Part shown: piece by piece, positions 8,210 through 44,724 of the stretch | How the letters are laid out: every line of letters starts with the position of its first letter | Numbering within the stretch: the first letter of the stretch is position 1 | Assembly: GCA_964187785.1 (NCBI GenBank) | Contig: CAXLNC010001087.1 | Coordinates: 248,001-312,000, forward strand | Length of the DNA: 64,000 nucleotides | Direction: 5' to 3' | DNA from: Amphiscolops sp. MND2022 | Taxonomy: Eukaryota | The notes under the pieces: generated by a model | Told to the model about the DNA's origin: nothing | What the model saw: only the letters and a program-made list of their open reading frames with translations | Database searches by the model: none | Program-made: the position numbers and the translations under genes

Positions 8210-8646
8210 TGAAAAAGAGTTGCGGGTTCGATATTGTAATAAATATCTGTTTATCTTTGCGGTTACGCTCAGTTGAAGTGACCCAGATTGATTGGAGGGT
8301 CGAATTTTGGAATGTTCAAAACCAGTTATCTAGTGTTTATTGACCGTACCGATCAATCTGGGAGTCTATTTCTTTGAAGGGAAAAGCATTTTATATAAAA
8401 GATTCCTTTAGTTAGATTTCAGTGTTAAGGTAAAGGAAGCATCGATTGAATAAAGGTAATTCAACAGAAGAGTTTGAGTTGATGATAATTTGCGTGGAAG
8501 AAAGTTTTTCAAAAGTCCGAGTTGACGGAAATGTTCAATTGCTTTTTCCGGAAGTGCGAAAAGTTTGTTCTGAAGTTCGGAGTTGAATCTTTCTTGAGAA
8601 TTGGCTTGAAGCCACGTGAAATATTCTTTTTGAGATGATCACTAAC
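8210..8646 (-). repeat. BEL 5' LTR; its first base is displaced to 23458 by the nested insertion
   Basis: Matches 2000-2436. Ends in ACTAAC where the intact LTR ends in ACTAACA. Confidence 0.95.
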
Positions 8647-10543
8647 TGTTGGAACTCACGTTCCTATCAATGCTTTCGTTTCCTGTATTTCCTATCGGGT
8701 CCGTTTCCAATTCGAAATGTGCGGCAGAACTACATTGTTCTGAGACAGAATTGGACAGGTTGTCCACTTTTGATGCTAAGTTCTCGATCAACCTCAGGAT
8801 TTCTCTCTGTCCGAATTCAGTGTCTCTTAAACGCTTGGACAGACGATTCTCTATTTTATTGGAGATATCTTCGAAATCTTGTTCAGAGAGGCTAACATTT
8901 TCGTCATTTGAGGCATTACAATTCTCAATTTCCTCTTGGCTAGTCCCTTGGTCACTCCTTAGCTTTCTTTTCTGTGACTTTTCGGGCATTTTCAAGGAAG
9001 TATTTCTGCTTGGAAAATTGAATTGGGTATTCACTTGATAACAGTTATAGGTAAACTATTCCCAAGCAACGCTGGTTAATCACAAAATAATATCCAAAAG
9101 TTCAAAATTACGGACGAATGGTTTCAACAAACGGATGAAGTCAACAATTATCAAAAGTAGATAATTACAAAACAATACTTGAAAAGACGATCAAAGTAGT
9201 TCGTACAATCGTGAAATTGATTCTGTTCCTTTCCTTATCCCGCTTCAGGTATTTATACTTTACGCTAGACACGCGGAATAAATTCCGCGCGTGAATTCAC
9301 ACCTTGTTCAGCTCGGCGTCCTTCCGAGGCGGGAAACTTTGAATCAGGTCCACATCCTCGGGATTCGGCTCTCGGCGTCATCTCACTTTTAAGGAAAAGT
9401 GGGAATCAACTTCCTGCCGAAGTCCCAATTCCGCTTCGCTTTCTTCTCGGTTTCCCGCCAATTCAAGACGCCGAACCAAAGTTGGCACTGAAATTCATGA
9501 ACCTAGCTACTAAAGCGGGAAAGGAAAGTGAAATTGTCATCGAATAATCCCAAATTTTACTGCCAATAAATTAAGGGAAAAGCTTCAAATGAATAATTCA
9601 ACAGCACTGATTTACATTAAATCAGATAATTATGGCTGTCAAATGGCATTTTAAGTTGAACCAAACAATAAAAATCCTGGATGAACGCCAGGTAACATGT
9701 TTCATTTCGAGTAGCCTAGCCGGTTGACCAGGCGATTGACTCAATTATACATGAACAGAACAATACATGTGAAGGTGAATATTAGCACGGGGGGGTTATT
9801 TTATCACAATATTATTATATATTATAATCAACAAGGACGGCTTTGCAGTTTAGGTGATTGGAAGTTGCATTTCAATTAACTATTTTCAATCATCTGTCCA
9901 GGCTGTTGTTTCATTAAGGAAAAATAGCGCCTTGCCTGGGAGATTGACTCAGATGGAAAGTGGATTAAACATATTATGATACTTCAAAATATCGTTGATT
10001 GGCGTTTATTAGGTGTTCTTTTGGTACTTAGCTTCTTTTAAGCTGTGATAAACTCATTTGAAAACTGCATCGATTAATTATAATTTGAGTACTCAGGTAG
10101 TGCGACTGAGCGAGCGTCCCAGCTTCAGTCGACTGGTAAGTTGCCTGGGACGTTGACTCAGTTATTCAATTAGTAACAACTGCGCTCGAATCTGATTGGT
10201 CAATATGAATTGGCTTAATGAAATTTGCTACTTCAGCTGAGGCGAATCCCCAGTCAACGCGTTGATTGAATTAATTTCAGTCAGCGCACTGGCTAGGTTG
10301 ACTAAACAAATACTGCATTCATTATTATTATTTAATTATTTACATATGTATGTATTTTAGCTACAGCACAGAGGAGGGGAATGTACGATTGTGTGTTATT
10401 CAAATAATATCAAGCTGTTTGTTGTCCTTTTTATTTTAGATCTGTTTATGGTAATTTTGGTCAGTTCTGATTGATTTCCTCACTCTCTTCTTCAGGCGTT
10501 CCTCCCGTTGTATGTGTCCCGTGACGCCTCTGGGGTCGCGACA
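8647..10543 (-). repeat. Element A 3' LTR (1897 bp)
   Basis: Direct repeat of 21556-23452 at offset 12909. One substitution noticed by eye (9597 T vs 22506 A). Purine-rich tract AAGAAAGCCGGGGAC upstream. Confidence 0.97.
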
Positions 10544-11087
10544 GTCCCCGGCTTTCTTGAGGGACGTCCGGTACAGGAGGGAGTGGGGAAATCGGTCTGA
10601 ACGGCGACGAAATAGGCTGTTGAAAGACAGATTGTACTAGGGAGTCGTAAGTGAACCACGACGAGTCTGTCGTCCAGTCACTCCCCGAGAAGTAGCCAAT
10701 TGAGCTAGAATGGCTCGAAATGGGACTGACTGTGCCATTGATAGGGGCGAATAACCAACTATCCATTTCATTATAATCTCGGGGTGGACTGACGTTTATG
10801 TCATCTTGGATCACAGGGTTGTCCCTGGTGAATCGCCGGATAGTCGGGCCCTCTTCGCTCGCTGTAGAGAGGATTGCCATTGGCGCTGTGTCGTGATGCA
10901 ACACCGTATGCTCTTCTTTGGTCTTGATGATCTCGTATAAATCATGTATTACGGCTGGGGGGGAGCCGTTTTGTGGATATAATTGGATAGTGGGTGTAGA
11001 TTGCGCTTGAGGCAATTGTAAGTATTCGTCCTGGTCGCGGTCCAGAATAAAGCAGTCGTTAGATAAATCGAATTCTGGTGTCAGCAT
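10461..11087 (-). CDS. Accessory sense ORF-X, 208 aa, Ser/Pro-rich, function unknown; last 83 nt lie in the 3' LTR
   Basis: ATG-initiated. Clear homologue at the same position in element B (28708-29304): F[IL]LDRDQ, YEIIKT, IRRFTxDNPVI, GY[FW]SGSDW, SRGLS. Confidence 0.8.
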   Translation of the reverse strand: MLTPEFDLSNDCFILDRDQDEYLQLPQAQSTPTIQLYPQNGSPPAVIHDLYEIIKTKEEHTVLHHDTAPMAILSTASEEGPTIRRFTRDNPVIQDDINVSPPRDYNEMDSWLFAPINGTVSPISSHSSSIGYFSGSDWTTDSSWFTYDSLVQSVFQQPISSPFRPISPLPPVPDVPQESRGLSRPQRRHGTHTTGGTPEEESEEINQN

Positions 11088-11273
11088 TGTTTCTTTGGTT
11101 GTAATTGCAAGTATAGCAATAATTGTTTTGACAATGCTAGGCTGCTAACAATTTGAGAGTAAGCTGCGGAATAAAGGTAATTATAGTCGACTGCGTTGGG
11201 AATAGTTGAAACGTTTAAGTGATAATTCCCTTCGTTGTATTTCGTTCACGCCGCTTGCGTGATTGAGAAAGTT

Positions 11274-11353
11274 TTCAGCTGGCAGACTGAATGACTTCCA
11301 TTACGTCATGATAATAATATTTCATATTAATAATTACGTTGGTTTTACGCCAC
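11274..11353. promoter_or_regulatory. Candidate bidirectional promoter motifs between ORF-X and the antisense gene
   Basis: TTCAGCTGGCAGACTGAA (11274-11291) and TTTTACGCCAC (11343-11353) recur in element B at 29407-29424 and 29474-29484 with similar spacing. Confidence 0.5.
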
Positions 11354-11426
11354 GTCTTCGTTTTGATCTCTTTGGTGTTACGGTATGGTACTTTTTAGAT
11401 TTGCATTGTTATTGTCGTAACTGGTG

Positions 11427-14400
11427 ATGGCTGAGTCTACTGATGAGGATGCCGCTCGATTTCTGCAATCTCGGCATGTGGGTATTATCGAAAGTGAAGT
11501 GGAGGTGGGAAGGAGGGATGAGTCAGTCGAAGAGGGTGAGTCTGAGTCGCGTCTTGTGATTGCGGAGAGTTCGAAAGAAGGGGAATCTGTTGAGGAGACT
11601 GGAGATGGCGACAGTCCTTGTCCACAGGATGTTCGCCATGTTCCTGGATTTGGAGAGGTGGACGATGGTTCAGAAGAAGAAAGTGCTTCTGAGAGAGACA
11701 GCGTTTCCGATGATACTTTGCATTCCGACGAGTTGGGCGAGAGTGATTCAACCCATTCCACTGGCAGTGACGCCAGGCATGGTATAGACTTCCTTCATGA
11801 CCAGCTTGGTAAGTCCTTAGCTATTCTGTTAATGGCCAGTTAACATTATGCGAGCTAGTATTCTGACGCGTCAATTCATCTACTTTCGTATTCTTTGTAG
11901 GTCTTTCTGATGATTCCAAAGACGAGGATTTCTCTCCTGGCAAATTGCCTCCCGTTTCCGTGTTTCGGCGGAGTAAGCGTTTGAGCTCTGTTCCGCAGGA
12001 GGGGCCAAGTAAGCGAGCTCGTGAGATGTCACTTGGTGGAGTCGCTGGATCCGTTGATGAGGAGTCATCCAATGTTTCTACTGTAGAGCATGAAGGTAGG
12101 AATTCATTTGTGTTTGCTGATTGTCCGGAAGTATTGGGGGGCTGGGTTGTTTTCTTTCTGTCCTCGATGTTTAGTTGCCGGTTGTATTTCAGGGCGTAAA
12201 GTTAGAATTGCGGACGATGTTTCGAGTGATGCTATCTTTGACGTTCCTGGCGTCTCTCAGGATGATGATGGGGTTACCGTCGTTGGTGCAAGTTCCTTCA
12301 AAGTGGTGCACGAGCGTACTCAACATAATCGCCCTGCAGAAGGACTAGAGGCTTCTGTTCTTCACAACGAATGGGAGAAAGGTTAATCCTCTCGTTATGT
12401 CTGTGGGTTTCGGGTCTTGATTGGTATCGGTTGCATTGTTCGAAATTTTGTTCAGCTCTCAGTATTTGCGTTTCTGTTTCAGCTGGGTTATCTGAAGTTC
12501 CGGCAGGTGCTGTGTGTCTCTCCTCTTCTCAGGTGTTGGCGTTTGGGCAAGCTGCTGTTCGCTTGGAGAAAACTCAGTCGCGTATGGAGTCCCGCTCTTT
12601 GACCCGCCGTAAGTCATTACTAAGTTGTTTCTTCTTCCGATTGGTTCGCTTTGTTGTTTGTTTGTGTTTCCGACTGATTTGTTTATAACTCTCTGTATGG
12701 TTGCTTCTGTTGGTCTTCAGTTGGTAGTGGTTTTGTTCTGTATTTGTAAGTATTTAGTTGTGTTTAGAACTTGAAGAAGTTGTGCGACTGCTGAAGTCGA
12801 AAGGGATTCGCCTGCATCGCGATCAGGGTGAGTCTGGGGCTGAGGACGATGCCAAACGGAAGCTGTATGCATCCTACTTGAAGAAGAAGAAACGTCAAAC
12901 TGAACGTCATGTGCTCCGGAAGGAGATGGCCGAGCATGCCATACCCCGATTGTTCGTGAGTCGGCGTTCTGACAAGAATCCAAATGGGTTCAACTGCGCA
13001 ATCTGTCGTAAGGACATCTCCTTCTTGAGCAAGGGAGAACCAGAGATTTGGCGTCACTTCGGGAGTAAAACTCATTTCCTGCGTGATAGACGATACAGAC
13101 TTGACCACGAGGATTATTTGTACACCTCACGATTTGATGCTGTGGAAGTCTCATCTATCTCAGCTGATTTACGGGCGGAGATCGAAAAAACCCCTGCTGT
13201 TGTCCTTGGTTGCAAGAATCCGTTCGTCGAGGATGAGGTCGATGCTCTGGTTGGGGTGTCGTCGAATGTTCCTGCTTCTACTCTTGTGGGGGGTTTATTT
13301 GAACTCTTGCGTAGTGGTGGATCACACAGCTTCCTCAGGAGGTTATGGAATCAATTTAGAACCACGATGCCTGTTGATTCAGAGTGTGCTCACACGACTT
13401 GGAGCAAGACAGCGTCTCTCGTGATTTTGACTCAAACCTTGTATCCCAGGATTATCCGTCGCGTGCAGACTTGGTGTAAGGACGCTCACTTTAGCGTCAG
13501 TTTCCGCGAGGATCGTGATGGTCTTCGGTGTTTTGTACACTGTTGGAATGCCGGTAATTTGCATGAAGTCTGTGTGTTGTGGGAACCCGTGAGACCTGGT
13601 ATCTGTGACGCTGAGATTTCCTGTTTGTCCCGATTACTAGCTGTTCTTCCTGCTGGGGCTACGCCTGTGTCGCTACGTGGTTGTTCGTCGACCCTTTTCA
13701 ATGTCGTCGTTGAATGGTGTAAGGCTGACAGTCGTCCTGTGCCAATTCTAATGATGGAGTATTCTGTGGAGATGTTCAAAGGGCATGTGCGCGAGGCTTC
13801 TGGGCCAAGCATTGGGTCTTTGGATCCTTTCTCCATCGTTGAGTATCTTCTTCTTCGTTTGGGGAAAGCTTCGCATCAGCCCTGGCTTATGGGTTTGAGT
13901 GAGTTGCGTCGTTGTGTGCAGCAGTGTGCCGTACCCTTCTCTTCTCTATGTGCAGTGCTGGAGGAATTGATATGCAACTGGGGTGATGTTCAGTCTTGTT
14001 TGAAGGAATCCTCGATTGTTCCTGCCAGTCGTACTAAAGCGCCTGCTGATTTGAATCAGATGATCTTGGCTGATGCCCAAGTGTTGCCTCGTTTGTGCCT
14101 GTTACATCTTCTGGTGTCGTGCTTCCAGGCGAATTTCCAAAAACTTTTCGCTCAAGGGATTTGTGATTACAGTTGTCGCAATTATGGCGAGTTCTGCTTT
14201 TTCTATTGGAGCATCCTGAGCAAAGTGAAGAAACTGTCTGATCTTCCTGACATTAACGCTTGGAGTGAGTACATTGGGCGACCTCTGAATTCGTGGTCTA
14301 ATGTGGCATATGTTGACTGCTTCCGAGGTGAGCGTATTGTTGGGCTTGCCATGACAGGATTTACAGATGCTCGGAAACGGACTTTCTTGCGAGATTGTCA

Positions 14401-15400
14401 TGGTCTATTGATGGAATTCTTGAAGGTGCTGTCACGTTGTCCATTCATTCTCTCTCAGTTTGCGTCAAATTTGAGTTGTTTCGCACCAGATATGCTGCTT
14501 CTGGGAGATGAAAAGTATACAGTTGAACTGTTCCGTGGGTTGATGGCGTGTTTCCAGGAGTGTGGGCGTGTGACGAATGTTGTTGCTGAGGGCGCCTGCA
14601 ACGAGTTCAAGTCGTTTTTGGTGGAACTTCGTCGGCGCAACCGACGTCTTGTGGATACCATCACAGATAGTTTCGTTTTCATGCAGCAGTTTGAAGCGTT
14701 TGGCTGTCGGGAGAATTTGGCTCGGGTGGTCCAGTTGGCTTCACTTGTGGCTGTTCCTCGTGAGGTGTGTTACCCGGTCGTGGAGTTCTCTCTGAGTGGT
14801 GTTCAGGTCCCTAAGAAGATATTGTTGTCTTCCATCTTTGCTGTGCAGTCTTTCATTTCTGCTCCTGGGTTCAATTCCGGTGAATTGTTGACCAAAGACT
14901 GCTTGCTTGAGCTGAAAACCAATTTGCCTGTTGGGAGGGACTTTCTGAGTAATGAGAGTTTCGCTCCGTGGCGACCGTTGTATATGCTCAGCCGTCAGGA
15001 TCTGTACCGTGGTTTGCGGGGCCGGTTCGATGAGTACTATTTGGAGCAAGTTGCCGAGTGGCGCCGTCGGTCTGGTCAGCCACCTCTTACTGGCTTGTCA
15101 TCTTCCGCGACGTTGTCCGTTGCTGATGTCAGTCCACAAGCGTCGGTGGCCCCTGGATTGGTTGTGGATACGTCTGTCTCCCCAGTATCAATTGATGTGT
15201 CTTCTGCTGTTGTTGGAGCAGGGAGAAGTACAGAGTCTGCAGAGTCCCCTCAGGCTTCCTCTTTATTTGCTGCCTTGTCGCATTCCCCGACTTCTTCCCG
15301 TGATGTGACTCGAATGTTGAGGCAGAAACGAGAAGCTCGGCGAGCATCGCAGGAAGCAGCGACTGCTGGGAAGGATTCGACCCCAATAAAGAAGCGCTAG
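11427..15400 (+). CDS. Antisense 5-exon gene, 1174 aa: join(11427-11808,11901-12095,12193-12381,12483-12608,12768-15400). Acidic/disordered N-terminus plus a BED-like zinc finger and a degenerate hAT-transposase-like body
   Basis: Four GT-AG introns (92, 97, 101, 159 bp), all phase 1, join five separate ORF-track fragments into one 3525-nt open frame. The structure is mirrored in element B. The hAT assignment is by-eye motif similarity. Confidence 0.85.
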
Positions 15401-15695: not shown

Positions 15696-16930
15696 TCAGT
15701 TTTGAGAACTCGTGTTGACATTCAGCGGGTTGTAATACGCATAATCCTTTTTCCAGTTTGATGGGGGGTTTGCTCGCAAATTGTATTTGTTTTTTCGTGG
15801 AGAATTCTGGGTTGGGGTATCATTTACATAGTTGTCTGAACTGGCGCCAGGTAGTGTGTCGTTTGGGGGTTCATCTGGGTTAGGTGTTATGTGGAAATCT
15901 TCTGGGTCGGGTGATCGGGTGTTTCTTGTAATCGCTTGATCTTCGGGTGGGTCGGGAAACGTTACAGTGGGTTCCTTCTGTAAAGGGGTGTTAGGTGTTG
16001 GGGCAAAATCTTCGGAGTTTGACTGCCAGGCTTGGGCATATAGGTCGTCATGGAAGACGTCTACTTCCTTGTCCGGTATGAACTCTTTGGGCAAAACTGG
16101 TTTGTCTGGGAGCGGTTTGTCAGTTGGGCAAGGTTTCAAACGAATCCTATGAAGGATTTGTGTGAACTTTGTTTGGAGTTTTCGTATGAGGTAATTGTTG
16201 TTGGGTAGAGTTTTAACAACGATATATGGTCCTGTCCAGAGGTATTCTGTGAATGGGATTTTGGTGCCCTGGGTGTTCGCTTTCGGGTGAAGTGCGTAGC
16301 AGTATTCGTTGACATGTAGGGGGTGAGCATTGGCTTTCTTATCGTAATACTGTTTGTATCGTATATAAGATTGCATCAAGTTTTTGCTCACAGTTTCTTT
16401 GATCTGTTGGGTTTTGTGTAAGATATCTTCCCCATGGGTCGTCGTCGGTTTCGTTTGTTGCGCATTGCGGATGCCGAACTTAAGGTCCAACACGTTGTAC
16501 GGTATTCTCCCGTGGAATACCCTGCTTGGTTCGCATCCAAGTGAGGAGTGGTACGACGTGTTGTAGTTAAGTGTTGCAATGGCCACGTATTGGTGCCACA
16601 TTGTCCTTCGTTCTCCTGTTGATATCTTTAGCGATTCTTTTAGGGAGGCGTGGCATCTTTCCAGAATTCCGATGGTTTGGGCATGTTTTGTTGTGGCATG
16701 TCGTAGTTGTATGCCCAGGGTTCTAGTGGCGTCAGCCACTACTTCAGACATGAATTGAGTGCCTTTATCAGTGATAATTGTGGTTGGTAGGTAGGCGTGG
16801 CGGGTCATGATGTCTACTAGAACTCGGGCTACTGTGCTGGCGTCTGTTCTGACCACGTTGTATGTAAATAGGTAGCGAGAGAAAACGTCCATCGCCGTGA
16901 TGATTGCATGGTAGCCGCCGGATGGTTCGT
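15696..16930 (-). pseudogene. pol: Element A integrase, N-terminally deleted (lacks HHCC and the first catalytic Asp)
   Basis: Begins at DEPSGGYHAIITAMDVFSRYLF. Retains ITDKG, ILERCH and the GPY motif. About 0.6 kb is missing relative to element B. Confidence 0.9.
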
Positions 16931-19900
16931 CGTTTCTATGGTCGTTTCATTTGAAGGGGGAGGAGAGTCATCTTTGGCGGTAACTTTCTTGCGGCCACGG
17001 AGCTTGCGCTCCCAGATTTGCTCCTCTGTTTCTGTGTCGTCATCGGGCATAAAGAAGAATTGTTCTTCTTCCGCGACATCGGACGACTGGATGTTGACCT
17101 GTATCGGTGTGGTGGTGATGTCGTCTCGGATCGTTAGGTGGACCTTTTCTTTCGGGTGGAGGTCGAGGCGGGACAGAAAGTCCGCTGCAGTATTCATCTT
17201 GCCCGGTACATGAGCAATGGTGAAACGGAACTGGAGGACGAAATCGCATGCGTTCCACAAGGCTGGTGGAATGATTTTCGTCTGGAAAAAGCGTGTCACA
17301 GATTTGTTGTCCGTGAGTACAACAACCGGTTTGGTTGATTCCCAAAGAATGTGGCTATACTCCATGAAGGCGAAGTAGGTAGCCAGGTGCATAAGTTTTC
17401 TTGACTGACGTGATTTTTTCTTCTTCATTCTCTTCAATCATGAGGGCGTAGCCCGCGTTTTTGAAGTTGGCGTCGGTCATGAGCACGTATTGTCTGTTGG
17501 GCATGGGTTGTTTGAGCCACAGACCACATGCGTTGTCCAAAGATTTGTTGATGCTGGAGAAACTGTTCATGATCTCGTTTGTGATCTTGATGGGTTTTTC
17601 GGCTTTGATAAGGTCGTGGAACGGGGCTATCTTTTCGGAAAGTCTGGGAATGTAATTCCGGTAATAATTGACGAAGCCGATGTAGCGTTGGAGGCCCTTT
17701 TTGGTTTTCGGGAAGGTTAGTTTTTGTAGGTAGTTGTGAATCTTCTGGTCTTGGGGGGCGATTCCTTCCGGCGACACTGTTCGTCCAAGGAATTGGACTT
17801 CCTTGGCACCAAACTGGCATTTGGCCATTGTCAAACGCAGTCCTGCTTCGCGGACGCACTGAAAAACCTCACGCAGGTTGGTCTTCAGCTCCTCGGCGTT
17901 GTGGGTGGCAATCCCGATGTCGTCAACGTACTGAGCACATTTGTCAGCCTTGATGACTCGATCGAGGTATTCTCTCATGAAGCTCGAGAAGGAGGAGAGG
18001 GACCTGCTGAGTCCTTGTGCGAGGCGCAGGTAAGCAAATGTTCGACTAGCGAAGTTGAAAGCTAGGAGTTCTACCGACTTTTTGTCTGCCATTTGCAAGA
18101 CGTGATAAGCCTGGGAGCAGTCTAGCTTGCAGAATAACTTTTTCCCTGCGAGGTGCTGAGCTGCATCGGAGAGGGTGCTGACCGGATGGTTGTTGTTCGT
18201 GTAGTCGTCAGCTATTAGACTGTTGATTTTACGGAGGTCTACTAGCAGTCTGAGGCGCCCATTTGGCTTCCTTTGAGCAAATATGGGGCTAGCATACTTG
18301 CTGAACGGCAGTGTAGTTATGATGCCGTAGTAGTGCATCAGGGCAAGTTCGACCGTGAGGTCTTCCTTGAGGTTTACTGGACAGGGTAGGCTTTGCGTGT
18401 ATGCAGGCTGGTCGTTTTTGGGCGTTAGTTTTATTTTGAATTCGTGGTTTACTCCAATATCTAATCGGTGGCGAGCGAATATGTCGTGGTATTCGACAAG
18501 GATGTCTTCTATATCCTTCCTGTCTTGTTCGCCGAGCTGTGAGTCTTCCCACTTGAAATTCTCGAGGAATTTCTGTTTTTCCTGTAGGCTGTTTGTGGGG
18601 TTCAGTTTCTGAATTTCCTCCAATTCTTCGATTTCCCTGAGAATCCGTCTTTGGACTGGCGTGTGAGTGGAGGGATCACCCGGGTTGTCCGGTGTGGGGA
18701 ACCAAAACTGTTGGGTCGTTTCTGGTTTCTCCGTTGTTTTTAGCAGTTCGTGTACGTACTCTAGTGCTTGTTCTGAGTCGTCTTCTGTTAGGACCTTTAA
18801 TGCTGCTGTGGATAGTGGTTTGATGTTCTTGGCTTCTTTTGGTGTTGTTATGTGGAATTCGGCTACCACCGTGTTCTTCTTGATTGTGAAAGGGGTGGGT
18901 GAAGTATTCGTTATTCGGATTGGCACCTTCATTTCGTGGGCGGTGGATAGAGAGCTGGCAATTGCTATTGGTTTATCTTCGGTGTATGATGGTATCGGGT
19001 GAATGACACCGGTGGTATCTGCTATTGACCTGATGTTGACTGCGGCTTCCACCGTGATGCACTGGTCAGGAGCCAGTGTTGTTTGGTTGGGGATGCTCAC
19101 TTTGTATGGTTTCGCTGGTTGTTCTTCGGACACTGGGTTTATTGCGTAGGTTAAGTGGGGGAAGTGGAGGAGTCCTTGACTGGCATCCAGGATGGCACTA
19201 TTGGACTTTAGGAAGGTGAGGCCTAAAATGGGGCCAGTGATCTTGTTCGCCACGATGAACGTTTCTTTGAATGTCCAATCACCAATTTCAAACTGGAGTT
19301 GAATTGTCCTGGTTGGGCTTTCGATGTCGCCATTTGCGACTTGCAGTTTGAAAGGTGGAGGATCGGTCTCTTGGAGGATGTTATCGGGGCTCATGTTTTT
19401 CAGTTTTTGGAACTCGTTTTCAGGCATGCAATTGACTAGGGCGCCAGAGTCAATGAGTGCATCTATTGAGAAATGCTTGAAGTCCATGGGCGCGAAAAGC
19501 ATGCGTCTTTTCTGTTTTAGGGCAATTGCTGAGAATAGTGGCAGGCATTTCTCGCCTGCTGGTTTGTCACTGGTCGGGATACTGGTTATTAGGTTTGGGT
19601 CCAGCTGTAATAGCGTGTTGTCTTCCTTGTGTTGATGATTTTCGGGTTCGTGGTTTCTTTCGGTATTGAGCTGTGCTTTGTTGTCAAACTCGCAAGTCAG
19701 TGCTCGTTTGATTCGTCGTGTTTTTTGTATTGGGGTGACGGTAGTTTGGGTTGTAGTGTTGACGGGAGGGTCCCCGGCTTTATGTGCGTCTGATGCCCCG
19801 GTGATTATGGCTTCCGTTGGGGGTGTGCGTTTTGTGGTTGAGATTTCTGGACTTTGGGGGGAGGATGGTGATGATGTCATCGAAGCCCTGATTTCGTTGG

Positions 19901-20489
19901 TGGGTGCCGGAACTCTTATGGGTGACCTATTGGCGGTCGAGTTGGAGACAAGTTTTTTGATGATTGGTTTGAGGGGGTACTCGGGTGGTGACACAATGAC
20001 TTGTAACTCCGTTTCTCGTTCGTCGGCGTGGGGTACGGGTTGATGATCATTGTTGTCATCTATTCTCCTCTTGGTTGTGTCCAGATTCATGTTCGTCTTT
20101 TTGACGAATTCGTGGAAGGGGACGTTAATCGTCTCCTTGAATGTTAAGGTCGTTTGGTCGTATAAGTCGGGGTTGTGATAGGGGTCGCAACCGTAGTCTG
20201 GGTCATGGAAGTAGGTGTCAGGGGTAGAACTGGGAGGGAGGGGGCGTCTAGTTGAATTGTACATTTGGGGGTTTTCTAAGTACCATGCTGGGTATTGTAA
20301 TTTGTCGATGGTGGATTTATTGAACTTTATGAGGCGCCGGATAAGCCATCTCCGCTGCCAGTCGGTAGATGGTTCACCGGTACACTCTGCGAACATTTCA
20401 GAATCGTGGTTCTTCGGAGGTTCAGATATCGTGTAATATCTGTAATCGATGTAGTCTCCGAAGCGAAGACGTGGCTCTAGAAGTTTTTT
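16930..20489 (-). pseudogene. pol: Element A pol: pre-protease domain, protease, RT and RNase H, with a frameshifting ~68-nt deletion near 17385
   Basis: LIDSGA, YASPIF, LVDLRKIN, KLDCSQAY, YVDDIG, LMTDANF, VLTDNK. The segment VAFGSKTF...AKEFL present in B is absent. Confidence 0.93.
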
Positions 20490-21898
20490 GATTCATTCGT
20501 TGACTGCGTTACAGTCGGTGGTTGAGGCATTGGTGTAGTTTGTGGCTGCTGCATTGGGATGGTTTGTGGATGTTGGGCGATGGGGATGTTGTTGGGTGGC
20601 GTTGTTTTGGGCGTTTTCCACCACGTGGGACGGTTTTCCCAATTCGCACCTGAATAACAGTCCTTTGTCTCGTGGCTCATTTTGCCGCATGTCTCGCACG
20701 GTGAGGCCTGTGCTGCGGTATTGTTTCTTTGGGATCGTTTGTCCCTATTGGTTTTGCGGCAATTTCGTAGTAGGTGTCCCGGATGGCCGCACCCAAAGCA
20801 TGTTCCCGTTGTTTTTGGGGGTTTGTTCTGTTGTTGTTGTTGTAGGGAGGGTTCGATGTTGTGTATCCCGGTTATTGATGTGCTGTCAGTAGTGGCGAGT
20901 CCGTTGAGTTCGATTTCTCGTTCCAAGTGTTGGACCATTGTTTCGTATGATTCTGTCTCGAGTCTGGCCTGGTTTAGAACCTTCTTGAGATGGGGGGGCA
21001 TTTTGGCATAAAAGGAGGTTTCTATGAAACGAGGGGCGTCCTCCCCGTAAGCTTCTTGTGCTAACTTTTGATACTGCTCTAGGAAGTCTGGGAATGTTTG
21101 TTGGCTTGGGTTGAACGCCAGATTTTCCCATTTGCAGCGTGCTGTTGCTACTGACTGTTGTCTGACATACCGTCGGCGGAAGCCTGCGAGGATGTCGTTC
21201 AGGTGTTCTCGAGTTGCGTCGGTCATGTTCCTGAACGTTTGTAGTGCTTCGCCTCTCAGGAGAGAGTGGAAATAATGAATTTTCTCCTCTTCTGTGATAT
21301 TCGGGTACACTTTCAGACTTGTTTGAAATAGATCCTCAAAGTGTTCAAACTTGTCCGTTTTTCCATCAAATGTGGGCATCGTGGTGGACATGGCTTTGGG
21401 TAGCCTGGGTATTCCGGTGTTGTGCGTCGTTGCCGTTTGCAGCGAGTGTAAGAGTTTGTCAATGAAGTCATCAGGGTACCTCTGGTTTGGAGGCGGCAGG
21501 CTTGATGATCTTTGGTGGGCGCTTTCTTGCTGGTTCGCTGAAACTCCTGTCACCATGTTGGAACTCACGTTCCTATCAATGCTTTCGTTTCCTGTATTTC
21601 CTATCGGGTCCGTTTCCAATTCGAAATGTGCGGCAGAACTACATTGTTCTGAGACAGAATTGGACAGGTTGTCCACTTTTGATGCTAAGTTCTCGATCAA
21701 CCTCAGGATTTCTCTCTGTCCGAATTCAGTGTCTCTTAAACGCTTGGACAGACGATTCTCTATTTTATTGGAGATATCTTCGAAATCTTGTTCAGAGAGG
21801 CTAACATTTTCGTCATTTGAGGCATTACAATTCTCAATTTCCTCTTGGCTAGTCCCTTGGTCACTCCTTAGCTTTCTTTTCTGTGACTTTTCGGGCAT
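20477..21898 (-). CDS. gag: Element A gag (473 aa from ATG 21898; first 114 codons inside the 5' LTR)
   Basis: MPTFDGK..FEHFE capsid-like start. Two CX2CX4HX4C knuckles (CFGCGHPGHLLRNC, CETCGKMSHETKDC). Confidence 0.92.
   Translation of the reverse strand: MPEKSQKRKLRSDQGTSQEEIENCNASNDENVSLSEQDFEDISNKIENRLSKRLRDTEFGQREILRLIENLASKVDNLSNSVSEQCSSAAHFELETDPIGNTGNESIDRNVSSNMVTGVSANQQESAHQRSSSLPPPNQRYPDDFIDKLLHSLQTATTHNTGIPRLPKAMSTTMPTFDGKTDKFEHFEDLFQTSLKVYPNITEEEKIHYFHSLLRGEALQTFRNMTDATREHLNDILAGFRRRYVRQQSVATARCKWENLAFNPSQQTFPDFLEQYQKLAQEAYGEDAPRFIETSFYAKMPPHLKKVLNQARLETESYETMVQHLEREIELNGLATTDSTSITGIHNIEPSLQQQQQNKPPKTTGTCFGCGHPGHLLRNCRKTNRDKRSQRNNTAAQASPCETCGKMSHETKDCYSGANWENRPTWWKTPKTTPPNNIPIAQHPQTIPMQQPQTTPMPQPPTVTQSTNESKNF
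20483..20489 (-). promoter_or_regulatory. -1 ribosomal frameshift heptamer A AAA AAC (gag-pol)
   Basis: Lies two codons before the gag stop. The -1 frame is open from here into pol. The same heptamer is in B at 38462-38468. Confidence 0.8.
21543..21555 (-). promoter_or_regulatory. Element A PBS TGGTGACAGGAGT
   Basis: Directly follows the LTR-terminal CA. The identical 13-mer is in element B (39648-39660). Confidence 0.85.
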
Positions 21899-23452
21899 TT
21901 TCAAGGAAGTATTTCTGCTTGGAAAATTGAATTGGGTATTCACTTGATAACAGTTATAGGTAAACTATTCCCAAGCAACGCTGGTTAATCACAAAATAAT
22001 ATCCAAAAGTTCAAAATTACGGACGAATGGTTTCAACAAACGGATGAAGTCAACAATTATCAAAAGTAGATAATTACAAAACAATACTTGAAAAGACGAT
22101 CAAAGTAGTTCGTACAATCGTGAAATTGATTCTGTTCCTTTCCTTATCCCGCTTCAGGTATTTATACTTTACGCTAGACACGCGGAATAAATTCCGCGCG
22201 TGAATTCACACCTTGTTCAGCTCGGCGTCCTTCCGAGGCGGGAAACTTTGAATCAGGTCCACATCCTCGGGATTCGGCTCTCGGCGTCATCTCACTTTTA
22301 AGGAAAAGTGGGAATCAACTTCCTGCCGAAGTCCCAATTCCGCTTCGCTTTCTTCTCGGTTTCCCGCCAATTCAAGACGCCGAACCAAAGTTGGCACTGA
22401 AATTCATGAACCTAGCTACTAAAGCGGGAAAGGAAAGTGAAATTGTCATCGAATAATCCCAAATTTTACTGCCAATAAATTAAGGGAAAAGCTTCAAATG
22501 AATAAATCAACAGCACTGATTTACATTAAATCAGATAATTATGGCTGTCAAATGGCATTTTAAGTTGAACCAAACAATAAAAATCCTGGATGAACGCCAG
22601 GTAACATGTTTCATTTCGAGTAGCCTAGCCGGTTGACCAGGCGATTGACTCAATTATACATGAACAGAACAATACATGTGAAGGTGAATATTAGCACGGG
22701 GGGGTTATTTTATCACAATATTATTATATATTATAATCAACAAGGACGGCTTTGCAGTTTAGGTGATTGGAAGTTGCATTTCAATTAACTATTTTCAATC
22801 ATCTGTCCAGGCTGTTGTTTCATTAAGGAAAAATAGCGCCTTGCCTGGGAGATTGACTCAGATGGAAAGTGGATTAAACATATTATGATACTTCAAAATA
22901 TCGTTGATTGGCGTTTATTAGGTGTTCTTTTGGTACTTAGCTTCTTTTAAGCTGTGATAAACTCATTTGAAAACTGCATCGATTAATTATAATTTGAGTA
23001 CTCAGGTAGTGCGACTGAGCGAGCGTCCCAGCTTCAGTCGACTGGTAAGTTGCCTGGGACGTTGACTCAGTTATTCAATTAGTAACAACTGCGCTCGAAT
23101 CTGATTGGTCAATATGAATTGGCTTAATGAAATTTGCTACTTCAGCTGAGGCGAATCCCCAGTCAACGCGTTGATTGAATTAATTTCAGTCAGCGCACTG
23201 GCTAGGTTGACTAAACAAATACTGCATTCATTATTATTATTTAATTATTTACATATGTATGTATTTTAGCTACAGCACAGAGGAGGGGAATGTACGATTG
23301 TGTGTTATTCAAATAATATCAAGCTGTTTGTTGTCCTTTTTATTTTAGATCTGTTTATGGTAATTTTGGTCAGTTCTGATTGATTTCCTCACTCTCTTCT
23401 TCAGGCGTTCCTCCCGTTGTATGTGTCCCGTGACGCCTCTGGGGTCGCGACA
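21556..23452 (-). repeat. Element A 5' LTR (1897 bp)
   Basis: Direct repeat of 8647-10543. Candidate TATA box TATAAATA at 22159-22166. Confidence 0.97.
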
Positions 23453-24324
23453 CTAACAACATTTGACAGTGACTGAAAGAAAAAACTAGCTACTGTGAAA
23501 ATTGTGCAGGTTTCCACAAAAACACCTATTGCATACGCGTTTTCAGTTTTCAAATTTCTTTTCAAGTTTTCTCTATTCTATATGCGTTTTCGGAATTTTT
23601 CGTTTTTCTTTAAATTTTTCATTGAAAATGGAAAATGTTTTAATGATTCAATTTCATTGCAAATCTTTACAGATCCCTAACAAATCCTTATGGAGTCCTT
23701 TGCAGAACTTGAGACAAGAGATCAATTCGCTAGCTAATCAATACCCTTTTGCAAATATATAAATCGAGGAATATTATCAATTCCAAACATTCTGTCCCAG
23801 ATAGTCTAGTGAGTGGATATAGGATATGCCAATCCCAACTCCGAAGTCTGGGTACGTTTCTTGGTCTTTGATAAGTGTTTGCACTTCATTTTGCCAACCC
23901 TCGTTGAAAGTCCTGTAATTTTCCACATGTTCTCAAAAGTTGCCATCAAGTTTTGTTGAAATTTGCTAAAACTCCTGCGCAAACTTTCGAGCCAAACTTT
24001 ATGCCTGTTGTATTCGATTTTTATCAAGCTTCTTGGAATTTTCATCAGAAATGTGGTCGCAATACTAGGCTGCGAAGATTTGCAACTTTTTATAATGGCA
24101 TGAGTTCTCATATGAAATATGAGAAGTTAACTATTTTGCCTCAATTTTAATGTAAAATAGGTTAGTTCAATCTCTGAAATGCAGACTAGCGTCATCTTCA
24201 CTGTGCTATCCGAGGAGCGGCGACGACACCAGACCAACAGTTGAGATTCAAAGTATGAGTACATTGGGATTGAGTCAGTAACAAATTGGGAAATGTTTCG
24301 GATTTTAATTGCAATAGTTTTTAA

Positions 24325-25530: not shown

Positions 25531-26588
25531 AGGGTCACTATAATAGTGGCGTTTCACATGCATACAGGACCGCAACAGGTGAAAAGTGGCAGCAGTTTTG
25601 ACAAGGGAAACCAAAATGAGACTTCCAGGACTGGTGAGAACTAATCCATATGACGGGTAAGGATACAATTATTGTAACGGCAAGCTGTTATCGGTCGCTT
25701 AACGCGTTAGCAGAGGTGGAGAAACCTGCAGAAATGGGTGTATCACTCGGGAGAGGCACCCATCGCCACAGATCCAGTTTACTTCCAGGTGTAAAATACG
25801 TCCCGAGGCCGTCGGTGCTTCGACAAATACCTTCAACCCAGTTCTAGTAGTGATTGCTAATGGTAACAGGCATCTTCCTGACTCTCTAAAGACCACCGTT
25901 TAACTAGCACGTAAAAACAATGCCAAGAATAAGGGAAATTTCCAGCTCCAGGGAAAATATCTAAAATTGTCAAAACTAGTTCTGGGGCAAGAAAGAACAG
26001 ATAAAAACAGTGAAAATAAATTAAATCTGGCAGACCACACAGCTACAAACTGGGGCGCAGGGGCTCCAAGAACCAAACAAGGATCTTCAGGCGAAAAGAC
26101 TCATTTTCACGGTTTCCGCTACATTGGGTAGCATAATGATGAAAATCAATAAAAACCAAGTGTTAGCACCAAAAAATAGTTTTCTTCGAGATTTTCACAG
26201 TTTTTATAAGGCTCATTCTTTGTGTTCTCGCTCCGTCTGTTCTCGTCCTCGTTGTGCAGTGAAAATGACGGAAACAGCGAAAGAAGCATTCACATGCCTT
26301 ATCAGTGCCACATGACTCATCGAATTAAATTTTTTCAGAAAATTTCGACTGATTTTGCTGTAGCAGAGGTTGTTGTTACATATCACTTGTAAAGACTGGT
26401 CCATGACTTGGAAAGTCGTTACCCGTCCTTGGGAATCCTTGGCAGTCCGTGGATTACGGGCAGACCTGAAAATATAGAAAACTTTTTATAATATTGTACA
26501 GGTCAACGTGGAAAACAATAAGAAACGCGCAGAAAGAGCATGCAGGGTTACTTCCAAGGGGAAGCATGATGTAAAGGTTAGAGCATTC

Positions 26589-28781
26589 TGTGTTGACCCT
26601 GAGATGGGTGCAACTCGTTCAACGTAGTTGGCCTTGATGTCGAGGCTTGATTTTCAGGTTCGTAGAGATCTACTATGGGATTTTCGGATCTAAGCGGATG
26701 GCCGGACAATGAGTCTATTTTTGAAGATAAATTCTCAATCATCTTCAGGATTTCCCTTTGCCCAGTCTCGGCGTCTTTTATTCTTCTACCAACTGATTTT
26801 TCGATTTTCTCAGAGATTTCGGAAAAATCGCGATCGGAGATACTGGGTACATTTTCAGTCCTTTGGCTAGCTGCCTCAGGTTCACCTAGCGAGCTGGATA
26901 CTGAATCCCTTCTGGCTTTCCTTTTAGCGGATCTTTCGGGCATTTTTGGGTTTTAAGTTCACAGATTCAAACTATTCGACAAAGAATAAAGAAAGGTTGA
27001 GATTTTTAATCTTCAATTGAGTTTTGTAACAAGAGAAAACAAAGTTGCTTTACAGGAAGCGGTTTTTGAATTTTCAAAATCTATCAAATTATTATTTTTC
27101 AACTGCACTTATTTAACTTTTTCAAGTATATATACCTTTCACCCACGTGAAGCGGGGAAAAATCCGCACCACTTTCACGCTTTATTCAGCCCGGCGTCCT
27201 TCCAAGGCGGAGAAACCGGAAGTTCAGTTCCGCTTTGTCGAACTCAGGCTCTCAGTTTGTTCATGCTTTCCGAGGAAAGCACGCGTCCACTTCCTGCCTG
27301 AGTTGCGACTCCGCTTTCCTTCACCTCCAATTCCCGCCTTTTCAGGACGCCAAAGCTGAAATCAGCAATAAAATGAGCGATGATTCAACATTTCGCTTTT
27401 AAAAAGCGGGAAAGATGAAATTAAAGCAACGACAATTATGGAAATTAGAAATTTCCCAAAACGATTTAACTGATTTAAATATTACTCCAGATAATAGTTA
27501 TTTCAACGAAACTGCACTTAGGCTCGTAAAACTACCCGTGGGGGCATGAAAACACTGATTAAGCATGAAGGGACAAAGCTCAGTCTCAGGTTGGGGTCTG
27601 AGACGATTAAGGCAAAATAACTGATTTCGCAAAAATAGCAAAAAAAATCGCAATTTAGCAACGACTAACAATTTTGTGATTTATATCAACTTGGGGGTGC
27701 GGTTCAGGTCATTTCTCAATCCAGTTTAAATGAGGATTAATTTTAAAAGGGTAGTACAAACCATTGATTAAATAACTCAAGTCAAAGATTTAATTCCCAG
27801 GCCGGGGTCTAGGCCGTGGTTTAATGCATTCAAAGTTAAGTATTGCTACATGAATAAATGGTCATAAACTGCATGTAATCAACCACTAATTCTTATTATA
27901 CTTCGTATTTGGGACGTGGTTTCACTGATAAGACGGTGGGTAATCGGGAGTACCGATATTTTTACTTTTAAGATGGATTTGGACACACCTGATTTCAGGC
28001 CGTGTCCTGGGCTACAGTTTATTGCATTTACTAATTAATCTTGGTTTACATGGGTGAATAGTATTGCACAACACTCTTGATCGTTATTCGATCGTTTTTC
28101 ATTGTAGGTGTTTGGTTATCGGGTAAAAATCATCAACCGAATTAACAATTTCCATTTCTACAATGGATTTTAAAAATTTACATTTCAGGCCACTTCCTGG
28201 GCCGCGGTACATTACTTTCAGTTAAAATCAACACAATTTGTACATTACTCAGGGAATTACATGTAAATCATCACATTAGTTGTCTTTGTTTGCATCAACA
28301 CTTTTACATGTAATCATTTAATAGCGCGTTCACTGCTGCATAGCGTTAAATAGCTCATTCCAATTTCAGGCCGCTTGCCAGGCCGCCGCTTCACTGCGCA
28401 AATCTGAGGCCGGTCGCCAGGCCACGGTTCCGCCATTGATCTTCCAAACCGTTTGCTGAGCGGTGTGATTCTATTAATAATATAGCACTGTATTATTATT
28501 ATTATTATTAACTGCACTAATAGCTCCGTACTTGTTGGTACACTGTGTGTGTACGTATATATTCTTGTATAAATATATGTAATTATTAGTATTTATATAT
28601 ATATATAAATATATTTTTAGCTCCAATTTGATTTAAAGTAATAATTTATAATAGCAATAAGTTAGTTGTGTGTTAGTTATTTCACTTGCCTTTTCTTCTG
28701 TTTCGGTCTAATTCCAATTTCCTTCTTCGAAGACTGCGCTTATTGTGTGACAGGTTTCATAGCTTAGCTGGGGCTGTGACA
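26589..28781 (-). repeat. Element B 3' LTR (2193 bp)
   Basis: Matches 39661-41774 with scattered substitutions and several indels. Confidence 0.95.
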
Positions 28782-29304
28782 GTCCTCGACTTCGATGTGC
28801 TGTCTCATCTGGAAGGCGGAATTGGGATATCGACCGGATTGGAGTGTCAAACAAATTGGGTAGATCATCGCGCATTGAGTCGTAGGATCTCCACGACGAA
28901 TCCGAGTCCCAGTCGCTTCCTGACCAGTACCCTTCTGAGCTGCTGTATGGGCTCATGGGACTGCTGACGGTAGAGTTAGGGCTGTATCGGTCCGCAGGAT
29001 TGAACCGCCGGATTGGGCTCACGAATTCGTCATCTGGGATAACCGGATTATCTGTAGTGAATCTTCGTATCACTCCTTGTTCGTTTTCAACGTTAATTGC
29101 ATTTAAAAGCGGTTGTTCGTGAACAAGGACTACATGTATATCTGCCGTCTTGATTATTTCGTAGGTAATAGTATGCTGTGCTGTGTTGATGAGATTGTAA
29201 TTAGGCGGCGGTGTACCGGGCCTTTGTCTTGGCTGCGCTGGTTGATCTCGGTCGAGCAGAAAAACGTCTTCATTTGTTTGATCGTTGGAGTGGGAATTGT
29301 ACAT
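28708..29304 (-). CDS. ORF-X homologue in element B (198 aa); last 74 nt lie in the 3' LTR
   Basis: Motif-level identity to 10461-11087. Open frame with ATG. Confidence 0.8.
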   Translation of the reverse strand: MYNSHSNDQTNEDVFLLDRDQPAQPRQRPGTPPPNYNLINTAQHTITYEIIKTADIHVVLVHEQPLLNAINVENEQGVIRRFTTDNPVIPDDEFVSPIRRFNPADRYSPNSTVSSPMSPYSSSEGYWSGSDWDSDSSWRSYDSMRDDLPNLFDTPIRSISQFRLPDETAHRSRGLSQPQLSYETCHTISAVFEEGNWN

Positions 29305-29531
29305 TTTATTTGATTGGCAATCTGATTGTCAGTTGATTAGGAACATAACTGACTAATCCGCGTCCTGAAAATTTGTTCAAACCGTTTGTGTTGAGCTTTT
29401 GAATTGTTCAGCTGCCAGACTGAACAACTCTCCTTATATAGTAGATAACTTCTAGTATTAATATTTCCATTGATTTTACGCCACAACTTCTTTTTATTTT
29501 TTCATGGTTTGTTATTTTCAGACAATTGATT

Positions 29532-41774: not shown

Positions 41775-43913
41775 CATTCGGCCTTTTCTTTAAAAGACCT
41801 TTGTACTATTTGTTTACTCGAATAAACCAGCAAAATACACATCATTGAATCTCAGTTTTCAGGCCAAAGTATTGGAGAAAATCCAACTTTCATTCGAACT
41901 ATAAGTAGTCATAAAAGTAGGAACCCTGTGTCACTTTGCTCCGTTTTCGTGAAGTTGAACTAATTTATACGAGGGGGGGGTTCCTTGCGGCTTGTGACTA
42001 CGAAAGTAAATTATTGGTTGAATGCTTTTTGTATTCGTTTTTGGAATTGCATTTTTGCGAAAGTACATGTAGTAAAAGCATAGACACTCTTGTTTATTAT
42101 TTTAATGCCTGAAAGTTTGGAAAGTACTAACCTTGAAATTTTGTTGTAAATGAATTGTAAAGCTGGATTGACTAATACTGGTACAAATTTATTGTAAATA
42201 AAGGGAGTGGTATTTCCAACTTTCTTATCTGTATGTACTCTTAATATTATTAGGAATAGCTATATGCGTACCTCCAAATGTAGTGTTAGCAGATCTTATT
42301 TCTACCTGTAAATTATCTTAAACTTTCCAACAAATTCGTTTTGAATCGACATGTTGTTGCCATCCCCTGACCTCAGGTTACCTAGCCTACCCAAGTTAAA
42401 TTGAAATTTAATATAACTGTAAACCACCATTCTTCGTTTCAATCACATAAACTCTTGTTTGAAAACAAAATGAATTTCACAAATTCAAGCTTTATTATGC
42501 TGTTAACGTTATACAAAGAAAAATTAATGAATGATATTACTGTAATTCATTATTAATATAAAATTTGACTTTTTACTGAGGAGGGGGACCACGGGTGGGA
42601 ACTTCCATTGCTTCACAGTTTAAACATACATTTGGTTGGGTATTGGATAAGTCTTCTTTGAAATCAGACAACTGTTAGGGGTCCCTGCGGTTCAACTTTT
42701 AGGACACCTTCAAAAATGGCAGCTGGGTGCGGTCCTAATTTAAGAACCTCGATATTTCAGCTGAGTTTATGCGAGCCATGTGTTTTTTTGTGTGAGTTGA
42801 ATTCTCAAGTGGTTTTTTGTTTACAATTGTTAAGTCGTTTTGACATGGCAAGTTAGTAAAGGGTTTGTGTTTAATAAATAGCGGCGGTGAATATTCTTTC
42901 ATGGTGGATCCCAACCCCGGCTTTCTTGTAGGAGCAGAAATCAAAAAGGAATGCTCTGCAATTGATTTACAGCAACTTTTGATTTTCAATAGCTGGATTG
43001 AGATTCAGACTCCATTTTCTGAATACCTCTGTGGACTGCAACAGCTCGGTAAAGTGAATAGTTTATATTTTAGTGATAAACATGAACTTTAAAAGCTTGG
43101 CTTTGGAAACTTGAAAAATGATGTGAATTGTATTTTTCTGATACGATCATAACCCTAGTTTCAATATTATCAACACACTGAACTGTTTCAGCATGCCGGA
43201 AGGTGTGATGTAAACATTGACAATCCGAGAAGTATCTATTCCAAAACCTTTTTACAACACTCCAGAGCCATCTGAAACGTAACATCTTTGTAAGTTGAAC
43301 ACTTTACATTTCTAGAAATTGATAGTTAAACTGTAAACGTTTTGATATTGACCGGAACTGTAGAGTGGTTAGAATTGCAAACATTTTTCTATAGTATTAA
43401 TAGAACAATCTGTTTTAGCAAACAACACAATGAAAGCAGTGAGGAACACTTATAAAGTATCCATTCCATGACTAGTTCAACAGCACCCGAAAGAAGTCAA
43501 TGGAGAAAATATCAACACCGATCAATCTCGACTGAATGAAATCAGCAGAATTATTTAGTCAGCCACTTCAGTTGGGTTGACCCAATACTGAAACTTCTTC
43601 AGATTCTAAATTTCCACGTAAAATTTATTCGAAATATCCCACACACACAAAGTAGAAACACTTTTCCAGTAAAATATGTTTATAGTTACTTCCAAAATAT
43701 GTTGGTTTTGTCTGAATAAATACGGGATCTATTATGTCCTAATTGAAAATAATGTTTGATATATTCGACAATTCGGTACATTTCTGCTCTTGAAAATTTG
43801 GTCTTGACTAAAAGTAATAGACAACCTATTATGTCCTATTGAAAATTAATTCAATATATCTGATAATTTGTTACTTTTCAGCGCTTTATCTTCTGGTTAT
43901 GACTGAATTCATA

Positions 43914-44715
43914 AGGGATAAGTTCTGTCGGTTTGAAAAATTGTTGATTATGTCCAGCATTTTTGCTTTTTAAATGTCTTTAGCTGTCAAAATGGCTTAC
44001 TTTAGTGTACTTCCTTCCATAGGGGATAAGTTCTGTCGGTTTGAAAAATTGTTGATTATATCAAGCATTTTTGCTTTTTAAATGTCTTTAACTTTCAAAG
44101 CGGTTTACTTTAGTGTACTTCCATAGGGGATAAGTTCTGTCGGTTTGAAAAATTGTTGATTTTATCCAGCGTTTTTGCTTTTTAAAGGTCTTTAACTCTC
44201 AAAACGGCTTACTTTAGTGTACTTCCATAGGGGATAAGTTCTATCGGTTTGAAAAATTGTTGATTATATCCAGCATTTTTGCTTTTTAAATGTCTTTAAC
44301 TCTCAAAACGGTTTACTTTAGTGTATTTCCATAGGGGATAAGTTCTGTCGGTTTGAAAAATTGTTGATTATATCCAGCATTTTTGCTTTTCAAATGTCTT
44401 TAACTCTCAAAACGGTTTACTTTAGTGTACTTCCATAGGGGATAAGTTTTGTCGGTTTGAAAAATTGCTGATTATGTCCAGCATTTTTGCTTTTTAAATG
44501 TCTTTAGCTGTCAAAATGGCTTACCTTAGTGTACTTCCAAAGGGGATAAGTTCTGTCGGTTTGAAAAATTGTTGATTATATCCAGCATTTTTGCTTTTTA
44601 AATGTCTTTAACTCTCAAAACGGTTTACTTCAGTGTACTTCCATAGGGGATAAGTTCTGTCGGTTTGAAAAATTGTTGATTATGTCCAGCATTTTAGCTT
44701 TTAAATATCTTTAAA
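43914..44715. repeat. Tandem satellite, ~104-bp unit, ~7.7 copies; a further ~1.5 units at ~45710-45870
   Basis: Unit begins GGGGATAAGTTCTGTCGGTTTGAAAAATTGTTGATTA and recurs at ~44021, 44125, 44229, 44334, 44438, 44541 and 44645. Confidence 0.95.
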
Positions 44716-44724
44716 CCAAAATGT

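Follow-up and report, generated by a model that had tools for sequence, protein, structure and literature searches.

The locus raises the question of whether an open reading frame that runs through the purine-rich tract of a retrotransposon into its 3' LTR is a gene and, if it is, how it is expressed and what its protein does. The stretch of DNA analysed here (the window, 64,000 nucleotides from Amphiscolops sp. MND2022) contains two such frames, ORF-X copy A (10461..11087, minus strand, 208 aa) and ORF-X copy B (28708..29304, minus strand, 198 aa). Both had been put forward in the original prediction, and each was found at these coordinates and lengths together with every motif quoted for it; the two are homologous, with 79 identities over 191 positions (41%; BLASTP E 3e-19).

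Judged by their sequence, the elements A and B that carry the two copies are Ty3/Gypsy-type LTR retrotransposons without env. They were assigned to the Ty3/Gypsy type because Pfam recovered the domain order PR-RT-RH-IN and the best PDB match of the RT was Ty3 RT (E 8e-30); after Ty3, foamy virus Pol ranks with the closest relatives among solved RT structures. Element A has its 3' LTR at 8647..10543 and its 5' LTR at 21556..23452 (both minus strand), the latter followed by a TGG-initiated primer-binding-like site, and the two LTRs are 99.95% identical and have TG...CA ends; the 5-bp target duplication reads GTTAG. Element B likewise has paired LTRs with TG...CA ends and a target duplication, GAATG, its 3' LTR lying at 26587..28781 (minus strand). 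The proposed crossing into the 3' LTR is real: the frame spans a purine-rich tract (10544..10558, minus strand; the PPT by its position) at which synonymous sites are constrained, and its final 83 nt in A and 74 nt in B lie inside the LTR. The gag gene of A (20477..21898, minus strand) starts inside the 5' LTR and stays open through the primer-binding site, with its start ~340 nt inside the LTR (8647-8989 and 21556-21898 of the window), so coding sequence overlaps both LTR ends. The pol gene of A (PR-RT-RH-IN, 15696..20396, minus strand) is broken by two copy-specific deletions. Element A is itself inserted in an LTR of a BEL/Pao-type element (8642-8646 and 23453-23457), and a 437-nt BEL/Pao-type repeat occurs at 2000-2436 and 8210-8646 (99% identical). 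Elsewhere the window holds a 104-nt tandem array (43900-46200), ORFs that by eye resemble pieces of a Polinton-type DNA polymerase (49547-52797), and a further LTR element, the third, which is decayed, has 230-nt repeats, and carries no ORF-X (57485-63322).

ORF-X is maintained by purifying selection on its protein. With A and B as queries, at least 150 matches per query were found in the 1.07-Gb genome (the best 150 of 836 and 1011 candidates were scored, and 150 of 150 matched). The original prediction had offered dN/dS as a check on the frame, and neutral evolution was not seen: among 16 copies that span the identity range and were chosen among stop-free matches, dN/dS was 0.11-0.38 in all 68 unsaturated pairs of 120, with bootstrap intervals of, for example, 0.10-0.27 and 0.17-0.40, and the remaining 52 pairs are saturated at synonymous sites, with pN below pS. 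The integrase (0.07-0.16) and the antisense gene that faces ORF-X (0.06-0.16; unsaturated pairs of 28) are under somewhat tighter constraint, and the same contrast between core and accessory transposon proteins is reported in the available portion of PMC13547354. The other five frames of ORF-X contain 5-21 stops each in 15 of 15 copies, and the position of the ATG and its A-rich context are kept across subfamilies. In sliding windows, the Ser/Trp block of family A has a pN of 0.03-0.04 with a pS of 0.65-0.70 and is thus kept as protein, since pN is tiny while synonymous sites are free. At the junction of PPT and LTR, pS in the SRGLS block is low (0.17-0.18 in family A, 0.27-0.34 in family B), so this block is constrained at the nucleotide level and these data do not make it a protein motif. 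Away from the junction, pS stays at 0.5-0.8 and pN falls to 0.02-0.13 at the motifs. The further argument that the frames are open even though pol is broken is correct in its premise for both window copies but weak, because the two deletions of A are private and pol lies in one stop-free frame in 15 of 20 sister copies; at A's rate of pol breakage, a 627-nt frame would remain open ~79% of the time. On the selection and reading-frame evidence, ORF-X is almost certainly a working protein-coding accessory gene. One natural protein of 284 aa (P0041) fuses gag to ORF-X and probably derives from an internally deleted copy.

The original prediction held that ORF-X, cut off from pol by the antisense gene, needs an internal promoter or splicing. 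The need for a route of its own stands, and of the two options the internal promoter, apparently a divergent one, is favoured over splicing by a conserved module between the two start codons. This promoter-like module occupies 11217..11399 in A and has its counterpart at 29347..29522 in B, neither being assigned to a strand. It comprises, in A, an Inr-like site for ORF-X (~11217-11222), a GTGAAC box (11244-11249), an element of 17 nt (11274-11290) bearing 5-bp inverted arms, a GCCAC element (11344-11359), and TT[CT]AGA ahead of the antisense ATG (11394-11399). In counts that come from related copies and hence are not independent, all 90 loci, which represent 85 distinct places, contain the 17-nt element; the Inr-like site lies 28-30 nt past the GTGAAC box in 81 of the 90; GCCAC on the other strand is followed 22-37 nt on by TT[CT]AG[AG] a short way ahead of the antisense ATG in most loci; and ATG occurs 10 times between the module and the ORF-X start in 18 related copies, against 36 expected, with controls of 38 against 59 on the opposite strand (mildly depleted) and 47 against 33 upstream. 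Genome-wide, the 17-nt element has 422 exact matches, compared with 0 for its reversed control. It is quite likely that the module is a divergent internal promoter common to ORF-X and the antisense gene. TT[CT]AGA could alternatively be a splice acceptor. Splicing into ORF-X was considered and is disfavoured, the AG sites ahead of its ATG not being common to the families by eye. The 17-nt element, which is TTCAG-N7-CTGA-like and contains CAGCTG and CAGAC words, might be bound by a dimer, the antisense product being one candidate.

The antisense gene (11427..15400, plus strand) is predicted to have several exons, the main one encoding 824 aa from 12926, and its protein combines a zinc finger with a hAT/ZBED5/FAM200-like body. 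The likeness of the main exon to hAT/ZBED5/FAM200 proteins (0.90-0.94 in language-model features) is a lead that Pfam and PDB sequence searches did not confirm. By eye, the protein has no acidic residues at the expected position of the first catalytic Asp of hAT transposases. The gene lies directly upstream of ORF-X, head-to-head, in 20 of 20 ten-kb loci, with the integrase beyond it in 19 of the 20. It is under strong purifying selection, as the dN/dS values above indicate, and is broken in element B; antisense-type proteins only ~50% identical to copies in the Amphiscolops genome also exist. This gene is probably the more striking half of the cassette.

The ORF-X protein is predicted to be disordered, its AlphaFold2 model having a mean pLDDT of 40 and a single hairpin at residues 50-65. 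ORF-X proteins carry a net charge of -7 to -18 and are 26-33% Ser/Thr/Pro. They have no Gly at position 2 and no basic cluster, and all 10 proteins examined lack a hydrophobic segment (the highest Kyte-Doolittle mean over 19 residues was 0.29-0.81), so that the earlier statement that ORF-X is not env is borne out by hydropathy. A profile search of 1.84 billion representatives returned 48 matches, all of 210 aa or less, and the 24 previously unseen sequences that were read appear to be ORF-X family members or fragments. One of these relatives, P0126, is at most 45% identical to the Amphiscolops genome among 128 matches and for that reason is probably encoded in a different genome; P0132 (195 aa), a full-length relative of P0126, aligns end to end with ORF-X (hhalign probability 98.5).

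Motifs were scored in 19 proteins, nine from family A, nine from family B, and P0132, and six patterns persist in this distant relative. FILDRDQ (11031..11051; all motif coordinates are minus strand, copy A) follows the pattern F[IVL]x[DE][RK][DE] in 19 of 19 proteins. The YE..KT..H.VL.[HY][DE] block (10893..10937), the sole predicted structure as a low-confidence beta hairpin, retains both YE...T and H.VL.[HY][DE] in all 19, as does NP.I within the IRRF..NP.I.DD block (10800..10841). In the Ser-rich block, W-x4-[ST]-W (10656..10676) is the deepest conserved part (18 of 19, P0132 included), and GY[FWY]SGS (10680..10697), which the original prediction took as its degron candidate, occurs in 18 of 18 family A and B proteins and not in P0132. 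A CDK-type site, [ST]P-hydrophobic-[RK]-[PS] (10587..10607), is found in all 19 and hence retained in all three families, P0132 included, and such sites exceed the shuffle expectation (p 0.03, 0.02, and 0.002). The LTRs carry E2F-like words (TTCCCGC, GCGGGAA) in 11 of 12 copies (A, 9328-9522; B, 27331-27413), with 24 in ~26 kb of LTR against 24 in ~88 kb of internal sequence. Together, the LTR words and the CDK-type site offer hints of cell-cycle control.

No known family was recovered for either protein. Single-sequence Pfam searches gave 0 families for ORF-X or the antisense protein and their alignments gave weak, unrelated Pfam matches only; no PDB sequence match fell below E 0.1, the best ESM Atlas value for ORF-X was 0.80 (no lead), and a JGI metagenome scan yielded 116 pattern matches with 0 confirmed. 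A family-wide motif scan found LxCxE, PIP box, and KEN in 0 of 19 proteins each, RVxF in 1 of 19, and the strict COP1-type ExxxVP[DE] in 0 of 19; D-box and PPxY occur in family B only (PPxY in 9 of 9). We note as a lead that [DE]NPVIP[DE] (29029-29070 in B), found in 10 of 19 proteins (family B and P0132), is similar to the COP1-type VP motif, with Ile taking the place of Val.

The proteins of families A and B are strongly depleted in lysine, containing 1-5 residues where codon-position shuffles predict 8-11 (P<=0.017 in 17 of 18), with arginine near expectation. A lysine-free stretch of 97-179 residues, more than half the length, is present in all 18, which places every one of them within the published definition of a lysine desert (a lysine-free stretch of at least 50% of length, in the accessible part of PMC13696103), and the stretch reaches 150 residues in 6 of 18. 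Five other disordered regions of the element gave depletion P values of 0.05-0.76, and P0132 has no lysine desert (longest lysine-free stretch, 44 of 195). Lysine is likewise scarce (0.8%) in the antisense gene's acidic first exon, so the depletion in ORF-X may partly follow from its acidic composition. Lysine deserts with arginine kept are described as typical of disordered proteins of the ubiquitin system, and only about one-third of the top human lysine-desert proteins belong to that system (both from excerpts of PMC10169902); lysine absence by itself is no proof of selection (PMC13696103).

Within families, ORF-X has been reshuffled against U3 and the antisense gene (for example, ORF-X 0.90 alongside U3 0.64 and 0.53 and antisense gene 0.60-0.64; the antisense segments were taken at a fixed offset and are sensitive to indels, and the U3 segments were anchored). 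Since ORF-X is shuffled against its partners within the element, a host target fits better than a matched element partner. Families A and B exchange no segment (91 pairs, all <=0.70). At loci L061-L080, the identities of integrase, antisense gene, ORF-X, and U3 are discordant between subfamilies, which we read as frequent module swapping; the conserved promoter and the PPT may serve as its switch points.

Our best explanation, held tentatively and at somewhat short of an even chance, is that ORF-X encodes a disordered, phospho-regulated adaptor that uses its motifs to engage, in trans, proteins of the host ubiquitin pathway. We chose it because of the lysine desert, the kept CDK-type site, and the recombination against U3 and the antisense gene. 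We hypothesize that the divergent internal promoter, common to the antisense hAT-like gene, would transcribe ORF-X and that the disordered product would be phosphorylated at the CDK-type site and would bind through its hairpin, NP.I, and W-x4-[ST]-W motifs to a host ligase or ligase-linked protein; the lysine desert would spare ORF-X itself from ubiquitin, and the adaptor would protect or time the activity of the element. What counts against this is that no known ligase motif is common to all families among the 19 proteins, that P0132 lacks the lysine desert, and that the depletion may partly reflect acidic composition. The original prediction also looked to a ligase, and in that broad sense it gains some support from the lysine desert in 18 of 18 family A and B proteins; its specific form, a β-TrCP-type phosphodegron, does not survive. 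The β-TrCP consensus is DpSGxx(x)pS, with noncanonical degrons on record (PMC5514133 and PMC11403584, in the portions available), and canonical DSG-x(2,3)-[ST] occurs in 0 of 20 ORF-X proteins. A relaxed form, [DEST][DEST]G..[ST], is present at the GY site in every family B protein (9 of 9; SEGY[WY]S) and in 0 of 9 from family A, where Ile precedes Gly. The target is thus probably not β-TrCP, and a β-TrCP role would be at most a gain of family B.

That ORF-X is nonetheless a Vpu-like β-TrCP decoy acting through a phosphorylated SxxGY[FW]S core appears highly improbable: the relaxed degron of family B, the precedent of noncanonical degrons (PMC5514133, PMC11403584), the lysine desert, and a Ser-rich block that is the most constrained part of the family A protein are compatible with it, and they are set against the missing canonical motif, the 0 of 9 in family A at the GY site, the loss of the block in P0132, and the lack of the membrane anchor that Vpu has. 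The head-to-head arrangement in all 20 long loci and the common module would instead suit a split transactivator, an unlikely reading in which the antisense protein binds DNA and ORF-X is the activation half, docking via its hairpin while a phosphorylated, acidic, aromatic, Ser-rich block recruits coactivators, as a split analogue of foamy Tas. The strong negative charge and the absence of exchange between A and B agree with this, and an activation rule based on charge and W+F+Y+L in a 39-residue tile (PMC10550315, in part) is passed by 8 of 19 proteins with two assumed phosphates per tile and by 16 of 19 with three; p53 AD1 is described there as passing only if phosphorylated. Unmodified, 0 of 19 proteins pass and P0132 never does, ORF-X and the antisense gene are shuffled within families, and ORF-X lacks a basic cluster. 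Its position-specific conservation is also stricter than is usual for activation domains.

Conservation of W-x4-[ST]-W, the deepest conserved aromatic motif, could also be explained if ORF-X suppressed RNA silencing or mRNA decay, its spaced Trp residues in Ser/Asp/Thr context docking in the Trp pockets of Argonaute/PIWI, CCR4-NOT, or autophagy proteins and the suppression offsetting double-stranded RNA from antisense transcription within the element. We regard this as distinctly unlikely. A W-D-E-I stretch in P0132 does resemble an Atg8-binding motif, and the antisense gene overlaps the genomic RNA, a situation in which such transcripts can trigger silencing (PMC7264820, as excerpted); the GW/WG hook, however, amounts to a single GW in 1 of 20 proteins, and the acid-preceded LIR pattern occurs in 3 of 20 and never at the W-x4-[ST]-W site. 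It is very unlikely that ORF-X acts elsewhere, whether in trafficking, as Nef does, or in the export of RNA in the manner of Rev or CERV, or that it is a relic whose frame remains open only through overlapping cis elements. CERV, which serves a nematode LTR element as a phospho-dependent accessory protein (PMC10309623, in part), the synonymous constraint imposed by the PPT/LTR junction, and PPxY in 9 of 9 family B proteins give some ground for it, but ORF-X is acidic, with no basic RNA-binding patch, position-2 Gly, or membrane segment, and cis elements cannot explain the low pN at motifs outside the junction, where synonymous sites vary freely.

The adaptor reading can be pursued, ORF-X being tractable through its hundreds of copies, three diverged families, few deep motifs, and compact promoter-like module. 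If it is a host-binding adaptor, a nef/bel2-like gene and a regulatory cassette of two genes can arise in an LTR retrotransposon that lacks env, and the partner of ORF-X would name the host pathway that limits this element family. A bolder and rather unlikely scenario is convergence of a Ty3/Gypsy lineage lacking env on the layout of complex retroviruses, in which a divergent promoter would drive a captured, intron-containing hAT derivative and a nef-like adaptor as a cell-cycle-gated module hijacking host ubiquitin or transcription machinery against silencing. Transposon accessory genes are described as poorly known and lineage-specific (PMC13547354, in part). A literature search that left most subscription papers outside its reach found no description of such a cassette, and the ORF-X protein family, its nef-like PPT/U3 overlap, and the head-to-head pairing with a hAT-like antisense gene appear to be new.

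The nef gene of HIV/SIV is a small accessory ORF that runs through the PPT into U3 and encodes a motif-based adaptor. ORF-X is likewise a small accessory ORF crossing the PPT into U3; unlike nef, it has no myristoylation Gly or predicted folded core and would be expressed from its own promoter, not by splicing. HIV-1 Vpu, a lysine-poor, membrane-anchored β-TrCP decoy, has a Ser/acid-rich block around Gly. ORF-X is also lysine-poor with a Ser/acid-rich block around Gly, but it has neither DSG nor a membrane anchor, and the block is lost in P0132. In foamy viruses, an internal promoter drives the accessory genes tas/bel2 near the 3' LTR (PMC3798896, in part), whereas the elements described here have no env and their internal promoter appears divergent; compared with Tas, ORF-X has no DNA-binding domain, fold, or basic cluster and is unmatched to its own U3.

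Additional ORFs located after pol and before the 3' LTR have been described from plants (PMC7264820, PMC11963269), rotifers (PMC5408684), and nematodes (PMC10309623), each as far as the excerpted text goes. Cer1 CERV and the bdelloid ORF3s are non-env accessory proteins of animal LTR retrotransposons; CERV is phospho-regulated and made from a spliced mRNA (PMC10309623), and the rotifer ORF3s are enzymes or membrane proteins (PMC5408684), whereas ORF-X is predicted to be disordered and matches no family. Among plant Ty3/Gypsy elements, Retand, Grande (gene23), and RIRE2 have, as here, a long region from pol to the 3' LTR; in it lies a conserved antisense ORF that is transcribed from an internal promoter and often carries a transposase-named domain, and some of the sense ORFs there, like ORF-X, lack a known domain or membrane segment (PMC7264820, PMC11963269, in part). 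The term "bidirectional" is absent from the available text of PMC11963269 on plant elements, and no sequence similarity was found to the additional ORFs of plant Ty3/Gypsy elements. Unlike the plant elements, those described here have an antisense gene that is hAT/ZBED-like and predicted to contain introns, and it is faced by a second gene, in sense orientation, that extends into U3.
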